DNA from: Acidobacteriota bacterium
GTDB lineage: Bacteria; Acidobacteriota; UBA6911
Assembly: GCA_963664705.1 (NCBI GenBank)
Contig: OY761556.1
Coordinates: 5,824,001-5,888,000, forward strand
Length of the DNA stretch: 64,000 nt
Reading direction: 5' to 3'
Shown: piece after piece, positions 43,119 to 64,000 of the stretch
How positions within the stretch are numbered: position 1 is the stretch's first letter
How the letters are laid out: each line of letters opens with the position of its first letter
Notes under the pieces: generated by a model
The model's input: only the letters and a program-made list of their open reading frames with translations
Database searches by the model: none
Told to the model about the DNA's origin: nothing
Translations under genes and position numbers: made by a program

Positions 43119-43167
43119 GCAACTGCTCTCCTATCCTCCCAAGAGGATTAATGGATTAAATACCCGT

Positions 43168-43320
43168 GGAGCAGGTCTCCTGGCTTCCGGTTCCGTCTAC
43201 CAGCCGCGCCTTCCCATCCAAACGGACAGTGGCATGTTGCGGCTTTCGTCCCGATTACAGTCGCTGGGCGGCGGGAGCTTTACACCCCCTTCTCTTTTCC
43301 AGGGCAACGTTAGATTATTA
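43168..43320 (-). promoter_or_regulatory. Cobalamin riboswitch (proximal copy)
   Basis: Minus strand has ACTGTAA..GCCACTG..GGGAAGGC..AGCCAGGAGACCTGC (B12 box). The 5' part deviates from consensus. Confidence 0.8.
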
Positions 43321-43355
43321 AGTTTCCATGCTTCCTTCCGAATCAGGCAGTGGGC

Positions 43356-43387
43356 AAAAAAAACCCGGACCTGATTGCAAGCCCGGG
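43356..43387 (-). terminator. Intrinsic terminator of the distal riboswitch
   Basis: CCCGGGCTTG-caat-CAGGTCCGGG followed by T8. Confidence 0.8.
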
Positions 43388-43456
43388 GATTCCGTTTTTA
43401 TCCTCGATGTAATAGTCGTCGTCCCTAGTCCACGAGCGCGCGACTATGCTTTATCG

Positions 43457-43612
43457 AGCAGGTCTTCCGGCTTCCGGATCAATCTACTTGCCGCGCCTTC
43501 CCATCCAAACGGACAGTGGCATTGATTTCGACTTTCGTCCCCGGTTACGGCGGCGGGACCGCGACGGCTTTTCACCGTCTTCCCTATTAAGGCCCAAGGG
43601 CCGCTCAAGAAG
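43457..43612 (-). promoter_or_regulatory. Cobalamin riboswitch (distal copy)
   Basis: AATAGGGAAGACGGTGAAAAGCCG..CCCGCCGCCGTAA..GCCACTG..GGGAAGGC..AGCCGGAAGACCTGC. Confidence 0.9.
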
Positions 43613-43617
43613 GCCTC

Positions 43618-43646
43618 ATGCTACTTAGGATTCAACAGAGCGTCAA
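43618..43646 (-). promoter_or_regulatory. Sigma70 promoter of the btuB leader
   Basis: TTGACG-N17-TAGCAT directly upstream of the distal aptamer. Confidence 0.65.
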
Positions 43647-43954
43647 GAGATAATCGGAACGAGAAAGAGGTATTTATTCCTAAAGCCATCGTGAACGAAT
43701 TAGTTTGCGGCCCATTATTGTAATTCACGAGATATCTGAAAAACTGTCAAGCCGGCCACCTGCATCAGAGACGCTATTGCATTTTGGCACAATCGTCTCT
43801 TTCGACTCGGTGGGAGTAATCGAACTTAATCTCCGCGGACACCAAGCTCCAGCAACGACCTGATTTCAACTGCAAGGCCCAGCTTTTGGGAACTTCTTTC
43901 TCTGAAAGGTGTCCATACGAAATATCGTCCCAATCATCGATTCTCGGAGGAACT

Positions 43955-45874: not shown

Positions 45875-46146
45875 CTCCTAATTATGCTGTTTTCTCTGAC
45901 GATGATCCGAACATAAGATAATTTATTATCAGTCCTATACGGCAACAAACCCGGACCATTTCATCCAAAACGGTCATCAAAGAAGAAAAAGGCAGGCGCA
46001 GGAATACAGTCCGAATGCAGCAATTTACCTTTTGGCGTTATCTCTCCGAACGCGACCTAGAACGATCATCCTGGCCGTTGCCATCCTCCTGAGGGTAGTG
46101 GTAGGCTCAGGAGGATTCCAATCTTATCTCTTGGGAGAAAGTTACA

Positions 46147-46812: not shown

Positions 46813-47103
46813 AGCGAATTTAGGAAGATGATTGGGATGCTCCCCCTCTCGTTCTCCTTTGTTTTTTTGCAGTTAGCGCTGGGCAGGCGCAAGGGCAAAG
46901 GTACTCGACCAACACCGGGAACGTGGATAGGCGCAGAATGCAGTACTGATGCCGGATTTGACATTTTGGCGTAACTCCCCGCACCGCGACTTCGGGGGAA
47001 CCTGACTGGACGTGCCCGCCAAAGCGGTAAATATCAATACAATAATCGAAATCAGATTTGTCGAAATATTCCGCAACATCCTTGATGGAGTAAGAACGAT
47101 TGC

Positions 47104-47153: not shown

Positions 47154-47600
47154 CTGATAAAAAAAACGAACGGTGGCTTCTTGATTAGCAAGATAAAGCA
47201 AATCCAAGGCAGGGTTTTTGAAAAACTTCTCGCCGCCCACGGCATCGACCAATTCAACGGGGCGCAGGGAAGGATTCTCTTTGTGCTTTGGGAGGAGGAC
47301 GGCATCCCCATCCGCAGTCTCTCGGAGCGGACGGGCCTAGCCACCACGACCTTGACCAGTATGCTGGACCGCCTGGAGGCCTCAGGCCACATCGAGCGGA
47401 TCTTGGATCCGACCGACCGCCGCAAGATCCGGATCCGGCTCACGCAAAACGCACTGGGGCTGAAGGACGATTATCAAGCCGTATCCCGGCAAATGAACGG
47501 CATCTTTTACGAGGGCTTCACGGATTCTGAGATCAAGGTCTTTGAAGGCGCGCTCCGCCGAATTCTTGAAAACCTCACGGGAAAGGTAAAAACGCAATGA
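47154..47600 (+). CDS. MarR family regulator
   Basis: QGRILFVLW..LSERTGLATTTLTSMLDRLE..DPTDRR. The RBS points to a start at 47154/47157 rather than the TTG at 47181. Confidence 0.88.
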   Translation: MIKKTNGGFLISKIKQIQGRVFEKLLAAHGIDQFNGAQGRILFVLWEEDGIPIRSLSERTGLATTTLTSMLDRLEASGHIERILDPTDRRKIRIRLTQNALGLKDDYQAVSRQMNGIFYEGFTDSEIKVFEGALRRILENLTGKVKTQ

Positions 47601-48031
47601 ATGAAGCGATCGCATCCGAAGTCCGCGCATTGCGCGAAAACAGCGCAGTGGCCTATGTGGCATCCATTAACGAGCAGGGTTTCCCCCAGGTCAAAGCCAT
47701 GCTTGTATTGGAACATGAAAGTTCGCGAACGCAGCTTTTTTCAACAACTCTCAGTTCTAAGCGGGCGCAGCAGTTTCTAAAAAACCCAAAAGCCTCTGTC
47801 TATTACTGCGACGGCCCGCACTTCAAGGGAGCGCTGTTCACCGGGACCATGGAGGTCCGCAGGGACCGCGAGACCAAGGTCCAGCTCTGGCGCGAAGGAT
47901 TTGAGATTTATTATCCCAAAGGTGTGGATGACCCGGATTATTGCGTGCTCGCATTTACCGCCGACACGGTCAACTATTACCACGGCCTGAGCAATACAAC
48001 CCTGTCTGTGGAGGAGCTTCTAGTTAGCTGA
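47597..48031 (+). CDS. Pyridoxamine 5'-phosphate oxidase family (general stress protein 26-like)
   Basis: ASINEQGFP, KNPKASVY, YYPKGVDDPDY; ATGA coupling to MarR. Confidence 0.85.
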   Translation: MNEAIASEVRALRENSAVAYVASINEQGFPQVKAMLVLEHESSRTQLFSTTLSSKRAQQFLKNPKASVYYCDGPHFKGALFTGTMEVRRDRETKVQLWREGFEIYYPKGVDDPDYCVLAFTADTVNYYHGLSNTTLSVEELLVS

Positions 48032-49942: not shown

Positions 49943-50121
49943 CCCGGCATTGCAAACTGGATTGACATTGTGGCGCAATGTCGCGAATGGGACTTCTTAG
50001 GAGTTATCTATTCAATGGTAAATATAAATAGGCTCTGACAGCCGTCGATCAATAATGCAGATTAGAAACAAAATGCAAGACGCACTTTTGCCCTGAGTAC
50101 CTGAGAGCTATTCCCTTTCCA

Positions 50122-51693: not shown

Positions 51694-52560
51694 GAGAAGT
51701 CCTCCTCGACATCGAACACCAGTGCCATGCAGTTGGAGCATTCTAGAAGTTGCTTGATTATAACGATATACAATCAAAAGGAGCAACGGTGATTAGGAGA
51801 GACTCCAGCATTTAGAAATCCACTGATTACTCGTGGCAACAACTCGAATTACAATGCTGTTATCCTTAGGATCGGCGGAAAATCTTCATAGGATAATTGT
51901 TCGCCTGCACAAAGGATGGTGGTCTGGCAGTTGAGCGGGAAGCTATAAATAGTCAGAGCAGGCATAATCAAAGATAATGCTCTCAATGTTCGAACTGAGT
52001 GGACTCTTTTCAGGGCCACAATCAAACTCCTAGCGGGATACAGATTCCTCGGTATGAGAGCGCGGTGAACATTCGTAAGTCCAATCGAGTCTAAGGCAAT
52101 CATGTATTGAAAAATTCAATACGGATCCTTTATGTCATAGGGAGAAAATGAGGGCTTTGATTGCGCTGCATCGGGAGAAAGAAGCTTTATCGCATTGCGT
52201 AATTGCTGAAAAGATAACATCAGATCTTATAAAACAATATAAGAAGAAGCTTGATAGCGGCCCAAACGAACTGACCAAGTCTCGTTTATGTCTGGTTAGC
52301 GCTGCTAGGATGTATTTGTTCCGAGTCTGTCCGCCAAAGTAGACAATATTTATCTGACTCTGATGTGATTTACATTTTGGCGTTATCTCCCAGATTTGGA
52401 CATCAGGACAATTGCGATTACTTTTCCCTGGTAATATGCTGACTTTTAAGTGGCTGAGGAGATTCTCTTGAAGGAAAAGCCTTTTCAAATGCTATTCTGC
52501 GGCTGAAGAGTCTCTTTAGAATCAGATGTCAATTGAAGCGAAACGAGAGTGGAAAAAAAC

Positions 52561-57526: not shown

Positions 57527-57792
57527 CGCGAGTTTCCTTTGATTGCATAATGGGATTGAATATGGCGACTCCATACCGTGTTCCCATCATCGCAGATAGT
57601 CGCAACGCCCTCAAGTTCCAATTCTCACATCGGACTTCATCGCTTCGGCAAGCGCCATCTCCGCCTCGCCTGCCAACCCCTGGGGTGCGTCTCTGCTCAC
57701 GGGAGGCGGGGGGTAACTTCTCCGATGGCGATTTATGGAAAACCATGACAAGGAGCAGTTATAGTTAACAGCATTACCGGAGCTGCCATAGG

Positions 57793-58295
57793 ATGAATTC
57801 ATCTCGCATACTTCGCACAATTCTTGTCTTGCTAATTCTGATTTGCACGGCAGGGTGCGATCAGGTTACAAAGCATATTGCCCGATCCGAGCTTTGTAAA
57901 ACGGGTCCGGTCATGCTGCCTGGTCGATTCATCGAGTTCACACTTGCCGATAACCCAGGTGCCTTTCTTAGCCTGGGCGCCTCATTGCCCCAAATTGCTC
58001 GAGTTGTCCTTACAATCTTTTTAGGTGTTGGCCTTGCATTCTGTTCGTTTTTCTCATTCGAACGTCCGGACTGCAATGGATCTCCTTTTTAGGGCTGGCG
58101 TTTACATTTTCTGGAGGAATGAGCAATCTCTTTGACCGTCTGGTTCGCCATGGGTTCGTCACAGATTTTATGGTTGTGCAGGTCGGTCCATTTCACACGG
58201 GCATTTTTAACGCCGCAGACTTCAACATTCTGCTCGGTATGCTTATGTTCTTTATGTCCACGGTGCTGACTCGGCAAAAGTCGAAGGTTAACTAA
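57793..58295 (+). pseudogene. lspA: Signal peptidase II, frameshifted
   Basis: DQVTK and NPGAFLS are in frame 1. GGMSNLFDR, VTDF and GIFNAAD are in the shifted frame. One base is missing near 58041. Confidence 0.85.
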
Positions 58296-59052: not shown

Positions 59053-59365
59053 ATAGTCCAGGCGATGACAGCAATAGGCGTTTTTTGTTTTGCCCCCCCC
59101 AAACGGATGTTGTCTCGACTGTTAGGAGAAACCAATCATGATGAACCGCGGCCCCGGAGTCGTGGTCCCTAAGCGGCAAGCCTGGAAATGTCATTGCATA
59201 GAATGCAAATATTGAAGGCGGCAATTTACATGTTCGCGTTATCTCCCCCAAGGCGACTTCGCACAAGCTTGCTAGTTCGAATCGTGCAGATGCCTCCACA
59301 GCATTACCATCATGTTGAGTTAGAAAGCTGAAAAAGGGGATGTTTTGCAGCTGAAACCTTGATAT

Positions 59366-59830
59366 ATGCTAGTACGTATTCAGGGCCATGAGTTCGTTTT
59401 CGGAGTGATTGTGTTCGACCCAAATGCTCGGCTCAATGCACAATTATTGGATAAATTTCAGCAACTGGTAGAACGATTGGAGTTCCCAGGGAAAAATGGG
59501 CTCCGGTTTATAACTACCATCGTGGCAATTATTGCAACCCTTGCCATATGGTTCATTCATCTCAATCGGCCATTATCGCTGGGCAGATATGGTGTCGATG
59601 TGTGGATTTTAGGCTTTATTGTAGCGTTCATTCCTCCCTTTCTGGCCTTTTTGTGCATCGGATTTTCCATATTCCCGCCCAAAAGAAAGGATCAGGATGT
59701 TATATTGCCGATATCATCTAGCATTGAAAATCCATCTGCTGATAGGCGCCAGAGAATAATGCTTATCGCAGGAGTTTTAGGCACTGTTAATTACCTATTG
59801 ATGCTGGCCACGAGCCACATCGGACTGTGA
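59366..59830 (+). CDS. Hypothetical membrane protein
   Basis: Three hydrophobic segments; start uncertain. Confidence 0.5.
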   Translation: MLVRIQGHEFVFGVIVFDPNARLNAQLLDKFQQLVERLEFPGKNGLRFITTIVAIIATLAIWFIHLNRPLSLGRYGVDVWILGFIVAFIPPFLAFLCIGFSIFPPKRKDQDVILPISSSIENPSADRRQRIMLIAGVLGTVNYLLMLATSHIGL

Positions 59831-60149
59831 TCGAAAGATCCATGGATTCGGTCCAGCCCTGCTGGCGCAGTCACGACATAGATAATCAAGACACCTCATG
59901 GCCAAAATGTCAGACATGAAAAGGCTTATTCAAATCAGAGATCGGTCGCAATGCCGTAAGGAACGGGAAACGGCAGATATCTGTCGGGAAGCTTCACAAC
60001 CGATGACCAGCACTGACGGGCAATTAACATTTTGGCGTTATCTCCCAGAACTTCAGGACAGCATCGTTCGTTTCATCGAATGCCAGAGCGGAAAGAGAAC
60101 ACTATTATGCTCGGTTTTCAGTTATCACTTAGAAAACATAGGGGAAGCA

Positions 60150-60479
60150 ATGTCTCTGTGGATTCGGCATAGGAACAAATCAGGCAGGCATTTGTGGTTG
60201 ATCGATACGCATCCGGTTTTGCTGTTATTTGTGATAGCTGCATTAATGATTGCCGCAGTAAGGTATGCGGAATTATTTGCGAAGACGACGCTGGTCATCA
60301 TGGGGAGCGGCCTAATATGTCTTACTGTCGCTAAAGTTTCGCTTTTTAGACGAGGGATTTGGATCTCGTAGAGGTCTCATTATATGACGAGAATGAATGC
60401 CGTGATCTATAAAACGGGATACGCATTGTTGGGCAGTGGCGCGGTCCTCCTATTGCTGGTGAGCTTCACGATAAAATAG
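60150..60479 (+). pseudogene. Small membrane protein with in-frame TAG
   Basis: GGGGA RBS and ATG 60150. After TAG 60369-60371 the frame continues for 35 codons with a further TM helix (YKTGYALLGSGAVLLLLV). Confidence 0.55.
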
Positions 60480-60581
60480 ATTGTGATAATCGCAAAAGGC
60501 GCGCTGTAGCAATTTGGCCGCAGAGCAACTTCCTCGAATCAGACTGCAGGACAATTGCATTCGGATTTCGGGGAAACTGGA

Positions 60582-60844
60582 CTTCGAGTGGAACTCGAAC
60601 AAGAATCCGATGGGCGTTGGATTGCGGAAGTAACCGAATTGCCCGGTGTACTTGCTTACGGCGAAACTCCTGGAGATGCGCGTGCAAAAGCGCAGGCCCT
60701 CGCACTCCGAGTGGTTGCCGATCGCCTCGAACACGGCGAGGCTGGCCGGACTTTGTTTTCGCATTCCATGATGGAGAGGAAATCGGTCCACACATGCTGG
60801 CACGAATTGCCAAAGAGACAGGTCTTCATTCTAAGGATCTCTAA
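60582..60844 (+). pseudogene. hicB: HicB-HicA toxin-antitoxin remnant fused by internal deletion
   Basis: ELEQESDGRWIAEV.ELPGVLAYGET (HicB) joins GWPDFVFAFHDGEEIGPHMLARIAK (HicA C-terminal half) at about 60740. Confidence 0.75.
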
Positions 60845-60909
60845 AACGCACGCTGAAAAATTGTGAAATCATACGAGCCTAATTTCAAAGCTGCCCAGGC
60901 GCAGTTTCA

Positions 60910-62283: not shown

Positions 62284-62762
62284 TTACAGACACTCCTTTT
62301 CAAAATGGTGCTGTTTGAAAGATCAACCATCATTATTCATAGCTGTACTCCCGAGGACAACATGATTGATCGTGACTTGGCGGCAGTGGTTGCTGTCAAA
62401 GCCTCTGGAGGAGGTCCAGAAATCCTACTTGGCAGCAAGTAACCCAAAGGATGTCGAAGCCCATCTGGGCAAGCATTTCGATCAGATGAAATACCATGAT
62501 TTCCTAGTCTCCCACATGCTGTCATTCGATTTGCTTCGTAAGTCTGTTATGGATGATTTCGTCAAACGGTCGAGATAGATTGTTAAGGAATAAGTAATGT
62601 CACTGGAAACGCTAAAGTCAGCCGCGAGAACAGCATTGGCTCCTTTATTTAGCAATTTAGCGCATTTCTCAGATCGGGACTACAGGACAATTGCATTCGG
62701 ACCTTTGGGGAGTTGCGGTAAAACCAATGCCAGGAAATTCTTTTGAGGGCATACTAGAAGGC

Positions 62763-63782: not shown

Positions 63783-64000
63783 AAGTGGCAATTAACAATT
63801 TGGCGTTATCTCCTACAACTTCGGGGGATTGTCGAATATTTCACATCTTCGAGTAGTGCGCATTTCGAACAAGTAAGCCTGCAAAAGGCTGTGGGATCAG
63901 CAATCCCGGCAGCCCTGTTCTTTCCGCGTACGGGCGTGTTCAACTTTCAGTCCGACTGGCTCAATATCAACCTCGGCTTAGATGATGTTTGAAAATAGTG

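Follow-up and report, generated by a model that had tools for sequence, protein, structure and literature searches.

Candidate recombination sites of two oppositely oriented classes at gene-module joints in Acidobacteriota

Acidobacteriota are abundant in soil and peat. In a 64,000-nucleotide stretch of an acidobacterial genome (contig OY761556.1; hereafter, the window), a repeat occurs nine times, every copy on the plus strand, and the copy at 60019 raises the question of what kind of site this is, where DNA is exchanged within it, and which enzyme may act on it. The initial annotation had taken it for a tyrosine recombinase core, with two inverted 10-bp arms around an 8-bp spacer (60019-60046). 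We numbered the repeat such that position 1 is window 60019 in this copy; the extended site comprises positions 1-49. A matrix scan of the source genome (G000; 6.89 Mb, replicon C1) detected 32 copies scoring above 20, as compared with one in each of three shuffles, and the strong copies were grouped into seven regions. The array in the window continues beyond it to about position 5900619 of the genome. Its features are as follows, where GAC and CGT are the spacer ends of two site classes, and "matrix" marks sites found with the matrix.

45959..45986, minus strand, inverted CGT-class site, weak (score 8.0), separated by the usual gap of 32 nt
46019..46067, plus strand, extended GAC-class site, core at 46040-46067 (matrix)
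46953..47001, plus strand, extended GAC-class site (matrix)
47181..48031, plus strand, cargo: MarR regulator and PNPOx-like gene, with a 91% identical copy at 5611013-5611919 of the source genome
48102..48150, plus strand, extended GAC-class site (matrix)
49957..50004, plus strand, extended GAC-class site whose accessory block lacks 1 nt (matrix)
52364..52412, plus strand, extended GAC-class site; the preceding ~300 nt recur at 86% before the site at 2930899 of the source genome
55184..55232, plus strand, extended site, both spacer and right arm aberrant (the copy earlier described as covarying)
57716..57743, plus strand, core-only GAC-class site, spacer ending in GAT (matrix)
59162..59189, minus strand, inverted CGT-class site; a gene-free linker separates it from 59220, to which it stands back-to-back (matrix)
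59220..59268, plus strand, extended GAC-class site (matrix)
59366..59830, plus strand, cargo ORF of 154 aa, no Pfam match, in the module ending at copy 60019
59968..59992, minus strand, inverted CGT-class site, probably decayed and interrupted by 6 inserted nt, lying 26 nt ahead of the accessory block (by eye; matrix score -6.9 or lower)
60019..60039, plus strand, accessory 21-nt block of copy 60019 (positions 1-21)
60040..60050, plus strand, left arm of the copy 60019 core (positions 22-32)
60051..60051, plus strand, collapsed spacer of copy 60019, 1 nt as compared with 6 in the family
60052..60062, plus strand, right arm of the copy 60019 core and start of the next module
60150..60371, plus strand, probable cargo ORF of 73 aa, hydrophobic, no Pfam match, in the module starting at copy 60019
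60528..60555, plus strand, core-only GAC-class site (matrix)
62664..62691, plus strand, core-only GAC-class site (matrix)
63787..63830, plus strand, extended site whose spacer is likewise collapsed to 1 nt (matrix)

Just left of the array, tandem cobalamin riboswitches (43153-43623, minus strand) precede a TonB-dependent receptor gene and cobQ; an Rfam scan of the window returned these two riboswitches only, and the window holds no tRNA. A stretch at 43770-43820 may, as judged by eye, be a decayed first array site. Inside the modules, a signal peptidase II gene lies in two pieces (57793-58295), and the core-only site at 60528 is followed by overlapping short ORFs (60555-60866) resembling a broken HicB/HicA-type toxin-antitoxin module (weak UPF0150 match), the HicA member of which is presumed by eye. 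PADLOC found no convincing defence cargo among 16 window proteins. Tyrosine recombinases occur at tRNA-Arg genes near two clusters, and an abundant repeat of 100-230 nt, unrelated to the sites, is dispersed over C1:4126050-4126460 and about 150 other places.

The letters and coordinates given initially for the copy at 60019 were correct, as 60019-60028 matches the reverse complement of 60037-60046 at 7 of 10 positions with the inner four perfect, and the letters of copy 55184 were also as given. This symmetry is not a family trait. Among 84 unique copies, 2-8 of the 10 positions are paired (median 5), and only five copies reach 7 or more. The arms of 55184 had been seen to vary together, but none of the ten pairs covaries over the 84 copies or beats column shuffles (lowest p 0.15). 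The supposed spacer (positions 11-18) is indeed among the best conserved parts of the repeat; however, it is missing altogether from 129 of 307 GAC sites, and it is not the crossover region, since module boundaries map about 20 nt downstream.

Module junctions were mapped with 198 unique sites, including 16 pairs that share upstream but not downstream DNA; these pairs are not all independent, some sharing members. Four pairs with the same downstream DNA were displayed, and seven pairs involving elements were set aside. In the 16 same-upstream pairs, identity was between 0.88 and 1.0 up to position 27, was mixed over positions 28-35, and had fallen to background by position 41. Positions 20, 21 and 24 stayed with the upstream DNA in 16, 16 and 15 of the 16 pairs, as compared with a sharing of 0.22 at positions 20-24 in random pairs. 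Since these positions are polymorphic and yet kept with upstream DNA, a crossover in the 8-bp block is excluded, and a 10-8-10 core at 60019-60046, despite the 7/10 symmetry of that copy and the strong conservation of its block, is a highly improbable reading of the family.

Instead, the core is a 28-bp unit at positions 22-49, in which an 11-bp left arm (22-32) and an 11-bp right arm (39-49) flank a 6-bp spacer (33-38); the former "right arm" is mostly the left arm of this core. Positions 1-21, in which the formerly proposed left arm and 8-bp spacer lie, form an accessory block, which travels with the upstream module and is absent from core-only sites. Conservation runs on to GAC-TT at positions 36-40, beyond the 10-8-10 model, and GAC-TT is carried by 11 of 14 independent contig-database matches, though it lay outside the search pattern. 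The core arms are roughly inverted (pairing 6.1 vs 3.9 for unrelated DNA), which is what one enzyme would need, and they do not covary, which favors protein binding to double-stranded DNA over a hairpin. A hairpin or attC reading was rejected, covariation being absent in both the 10-8-10 and 11-6-11 registers. As in a tyrosine recombinase core, the arms flank an asymmetric spacer that holds the junction, an exception being copy 60019 with its 1-nt spacer. Positions 28-30 and 41-44 vary between near-identical modules more than one clean crossover predicts. Taken together, these comparisons locate the boundary between modules in the spacer region (positions 33-40).

Inserted elements point to the same junction, at 38/39. 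A 3.4-kb element, containing two tyrosine recombinases (373 and 378 aa), ORFs with weak HTH_36 and zinc-finger-like matches, and 13-bp terminal inverted repeats, begins right after position 38 and restores GAC-TT at its far end. Its four copies in the source genome (approximately C1:2926841-2930291, 5024300-5027749, 5618149-5621584 and 5622486-5625921; L001, L003, L004) all lie at GAC sites and are 99.7% identical within pairs, and the right-end spacer was constant in five of five copies. Short non-coding relatives of about 260 nt are also found at sites (2937480-2937729 of the source genome; L053, L056, L131, L236). The triplets match: at GAC sites, the spacer with which the two-recombinase element ends is GAC-matched, and at CGT sites that of its short relatives is CGT-matched. 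A repeated empty target for the element, sought in G299, gave no matches. Homologues numbered 4,157 among 7,999 scored.

IS91-family elements with an upstream tyrosine recombinase (L109, L148, L235-L238, L038; a remnant at C1:5018325, minus strand) likewise begin exactly at the spacer/right-arm border, in both site classes, and five such elements chosen by their transposase all begin at a core (four strong, one weak). When the junction of their predicted circle is folded (-23.2 kcal/mol), it shows an arm like the dif XerC arm, a 6-bp spacer carrying a bulge of 4 nt, and TT, resembling a folded phage or attC substrate, and this model suggests that integration may be carried out by the recombinase rather than by the Y2 transposase. 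By analogy with IS1202-family elements at pdif, both kinds of element look like parasites that hunt for the sites; the targeting of pdif by that family is described in the available text of PMC10132070, and site-hunting insertion sequences also in 10.1101/2022.12.17.520857.

An arms-only scan revealed a second class of sites, with spacers ending in CGT instead of GAC and in the opposite orientation. The initial annotation had regarded the copies as direct repeats only and contrasted them with pdif on this ground; it had overlooked this inverted class as well as the core-only sites at 57716, 60528 and 62664, and the contrast was mistaken because inverted partner sites exist. The arrays of the source genome (213 kb) hold 38 GAC and 18 CGT sites at a loose threshold, at which 128 and 146 are found genome-wide; outside the arrays no GAC site scored above 12. 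Loci of relatives hold 269 GAC and 122 CGT sites. Same-class neighbors were direct in 127 of 146 cases and different-class neighbors inverted in 140 of 150, although 111 direct GAC-GAC neighbors show that strict alternation of the classes does not hold. Modules recur at different places: the MarR-PNPOx unit is 91% identical in another array of the source genome, and units longer than 1 kb follow different sites in different genomes at 92-97%. Contigs of four sequencing runs, which are silent on activity, held no clean site-to-site joint, and a joint of 52392 with 63791 matches another genomic copy.

These data indicate that the sites are, in all probability, the recombination junctions of a two-class module system. 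The kind of site first suggested, namely a directional site of the tyrosine recombinase type used in module exchange, thus appears to be right. The anatomy, the boundary, the two classes, the orientation rule, the recurring modules, the triplet-matched elements and a recombinase gene flanked by outward-pointing sites were all read from the sequences. As to mechanism, we lean slightly toward two oppositely oriented 11-6-11 classes at module joints being recombined by a dedicated Xer-like enzyme of ~300 residues, which was likely lost from the source genome. Strand exchange would require that the spacer triplet adjoining the right arm be the same in both partners, such that each class, GAC or CGT, would recombine with its own kind alone; the top strand would be cut at 32/33 and the bottom strand at 38/39. 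Between two direct GAC sites a circle could be excised or inserted, two crossovers could replace a module flanked by a GAC site and an inverted CGT site, and inversion between the classes would be blocked. Part of the basis for this matched-triplet rule is general tyrosine recombinase chemistry. The class restriction is also modeled on the pdif spacer rule, as given in the available text of PMC13141974.

Copy 60019 itself keeps both arms and has lost five of six spacer bases. This collapsed form is found in 4 of 187 extended sites, three of them in the array of the window, and the same 5-nt loss occurs with four different downstream modules (window 60019 and 63787; C1:5894128; L067). Judging from its spacer, copy 60019 is likely a dead, inactive recombination scar.

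An inverted CGT site lies upstream of 57 of 188 extended sites, in 55 cases at a gap of 25-35 nt, as compared with 3 of 188 in the control orientation. This short gap places the 21-nt block within a conserved gene-free linker between back-to-back sites, where positions 1-21 likely serve, we infer, as an accessory protein-binding segment. A promoter reading of the block, kept as weak, was examined and set aside: a -35-like hexamer averages 4.7/6, but the -10 only 2.9/6 vs 3.1 at core-only sites; the next ORF, by a crude ORF caller, was in the same orientation, opposite or lacking in 63, 45 and 12 cases vs 54, 46 and 21; and a promoter scan listed none of the copies.

Which enzyme recombines the sites is the remaining part of the question. 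A search of site loci in relatives showed a simple tyrosine recombinase of ~300 aa inside such arrays, with the full R-K-H-R-H-Y catalytic set and scores below the XerC, XerD and IntI cut-offs. Among 28 family loci of this gene (30 returned, two duplicates dropped), 20 had a strong site within about 1.5 kb (null 0.3), and the nearest site pointed away from the gene 22 times and toward it three times. In Terriglobia, a strong site lay beside 8 of 30 loci (null 0.5). The gene was present in 8 of 16 motif-positive and in none of 13 motif-negative genus genomes (Fisher p 0.003, an overstatement because related genomes are not independent). On plasmid pACIX905 of Granulicella tundricola, a 62% homologue is surrounded by ten strong sites, both classes being represented (null 0.33); the scoring matrices had been trained on sites from the other family. 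From these associations, the chance that the ~300-aa enzyme recombines the sites seems to us about even. Against it, the window array contains no recombinase, and tblastn found no homologue in the source genome (best match, host XerC at 28%), yet more than 50 sites occur there. Eight of the 16 motif-positive genus genomes, most of them fragmented, lack the gene, and no strong site was found at 22 of 30 Terriglobia loci or at four of four more distant plasmid homologues (41-51% identity). The gene could also be a passenger, as other recombinase elements lie within the arrays too. The family is very common, with 7,848 of 8,000 scored candidates at E<=1e-60.

A less probable, though serious, alternative is that the same sites and module logic are served by host XerC and XerD, both intact in the source genome, with the small recombinase as a passenger or activator. 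In Acidobacteriota the arrays would then possibly correspond to the dif modules of Acinetobacter, their XerD arm being degenerate as it is at the attachment site of TLC phage. Host dif lies at 2036985 of the source genome, 3 kb from xerD and near the skew maximum, and is conserved across the genus; dif arms vary little across the phylum. The sites are not chromosomal dif, being clustered elsewhere rather than single at the terminus, and none lies near host dif (L105). With an arms-only matrix built from extended sites alone, dif fits well, ranking in the top 1.5-2.2e-4 of genome positions, and only 3-4e-4 of arm shuffles equal its score; however, plain match counts to either dif arm were not above shuffled arms (211 and 131 of 500). 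The loose likeness to dif noticed initially may reflect some relation in the 11-6-11 register, and not in the proposed register with a 5-nt gap, which shuffles did not support. Furthermore, T39 and T40 are kept at 91-95% and G43 at 51% across sites, comparable to the needs of a degenerate XerD arm, in which T1, T2 and G5 are enough according to the available text of PMC9226527. The IS91-type elements at these sites have, in a hairpin end, a 10/11 match to a dif XerC arm that occurs in the genus, and one lone site (L088, in G022) pairs a GAC-class spacer with a near-perfect XerD arm. On the other hand, a match to the XerD arm of 8/11 or better is seen in only 5 of 444 sites, and the right arm is as like the XerC arm as the XerD arm. 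pdif sites keep the XerD arm and an inner palindrome (PMC6449649, as far as its available text goes), unlike the sites here, which keep neither, and the association of recombinase and sites would be left unexplained. Should host XerCD nevertheless act on the sites, dif modules would reach into a distant phylum, where the sites follow another grammar. The lone dif-like sites (L088, L082, L093 and L097) lie away from the main dif and have no array beside them; in addition to the one with the GAC-class spacer, they comprise a conserved one in G014 and twice in G002.

The inserted elements are unlikely to move the modules in trans with their recombinases, either those of the 3.4-kb element or the IS91-linked recombinase with a rolling-circle transposase. 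The source genome carries four two-recombinase elements, each at a site, and the five transposase-picked IS91-type elements each begin at a core. The two-recombinase element is, however, present in just 2 of 29 genus genomes, its 48% homologue inserts elsewhere, the source genome lacks an intact Y2 transposase, and the ends of each element are particular to it and differ from those of modules. IS91 ends as module ends were rejected separately, no conserved inverted partner lying upstream in the source genome and no intact Y2 being found there.

Of 29 genus genomes, 16 carry the motif; arrays whose cargo modules are bounded by the sites occur at several chromosomal places and on a plasmid of Granulicella tundricola. 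By pattern, the extended form with its 21-nt block was seen only in the genus, with none in 16 genomes of other families; the exact CGT-class pattern matched 18 genomes of the family out of 42, and 6 out of 73 elsewhere in the class (control 2). Ten of the 14 contig-database matches were titled Acidobacteriota, and a metagenome scan returned 119 stretches; viral contigs gave no match to the site pattern and no relative of the 373-aa recombinase. Full extended sites also occur in contigs titled Methanoregulaceae and Desulfomonilaceae (L020, L022), reflecting either transfer beyond the phylum or mis-binning. In its widest form, for which we see the chances as evenly balanced, the proposal is a phylum-wide gene-shuffling system with one dedicated recombinase, two fixed spacer channels that would permit cassette exchange without inversion, chromosomal and conjugative-plasmid arrays, and at least two parasite families: the two-recombinase transposon in GAC- and CGT-matched variants, and the IS91 type, whose single-stranded circle would fold into a matching site.

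If true, integrons and XerCD dif modules would be joined by a third way of building cassette arrays. A very common, so far nameless family of recombinases would gain a function, accessory-gene islands would gain a mechanism missed by integron and pdif searches, and a natural pair of non-interchangeable sites would offer a ready cassette-exchange tool. Acidobacteriota carry many integrase genes, which the available text of PMC3469429 reads as phage relics. Searches of mostly open-access literature, main texts only, found no account of such sites in this phylum, and the two-site module system is apparently undescribed.

Among known systems, compared here on the available parts of the cited sources, integrons and CALINs (PMC4889954) resemble the arrays in having direct sites between one- or two-gene units, small ORFs, toxin-antitoxin cargo, enzyme-less clusters and a conserved triplet at the crossover. 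Unlike integrons, the arrays have a second, inverted class, genes in both orientations, and neither IntI nor an attC-type fold. The best IntI score in the source genome was 87.6 bits, as compared with the TIGR02249 cut-off of 265; the candidate recombinase scored 41.6 bits against TIGR02249 and has no long insertion against XerD; and attC-type pairing was 6.02 for own cassettes vs 6.01 for shuffled ones (31 modules). The 3.4-kb element shares two simple tyrosine recombinases, terminal inverted repeats, target specificity and the absence of target duplication with SE, GInt, Tn554 and RIT (PMC10214605, PMC8138268, PMC3414803), and differs from them in that its enzymes are both 373-378 aa and preceded by HTH and zinc-finger-like ORFs, and in that its right-end spacer is constant, not a footprint of the previous site. 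IMEX/TLC phage attP sites (PMC9226527) similarly keep a XerC-like arm with the other arm degenerate, an inner TT and a G near position 5-6; IMEXs integrate at dif (PMC9226527), whereas the sites here are megabases from dif, have other spacers and recombine, as it appears, among themselves.

By analogy, the sites may function most like Acinetobacter dif modules, although they do not pass the test for a conserved XerD arm, nor those for integrons. In common with pdif are 28-bp 11-6-11 sites, inverted partners, C-type and D-type modules and fused modules between direct sites (PMC13141974, PMC6449649), two spacer clusters (PMC6449649), and, presumably, spacer identity governing exchange (PMC13141974); linear multi-module chromosomal islands (PMC12907356) and site-hunting insertion elements (PMC10132070) are further shared with Acinetobacter dif modules. 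In contrast to pdif, the sites described here belong to another phylum, lack a conserved XerD arm and inner palindrome, form long runs of direct sites, have many C-type modules that are gene-free linkers of about 20-55 nt, carry a 21-nt accessory block, and include their own recombinase gene inside the arrays.
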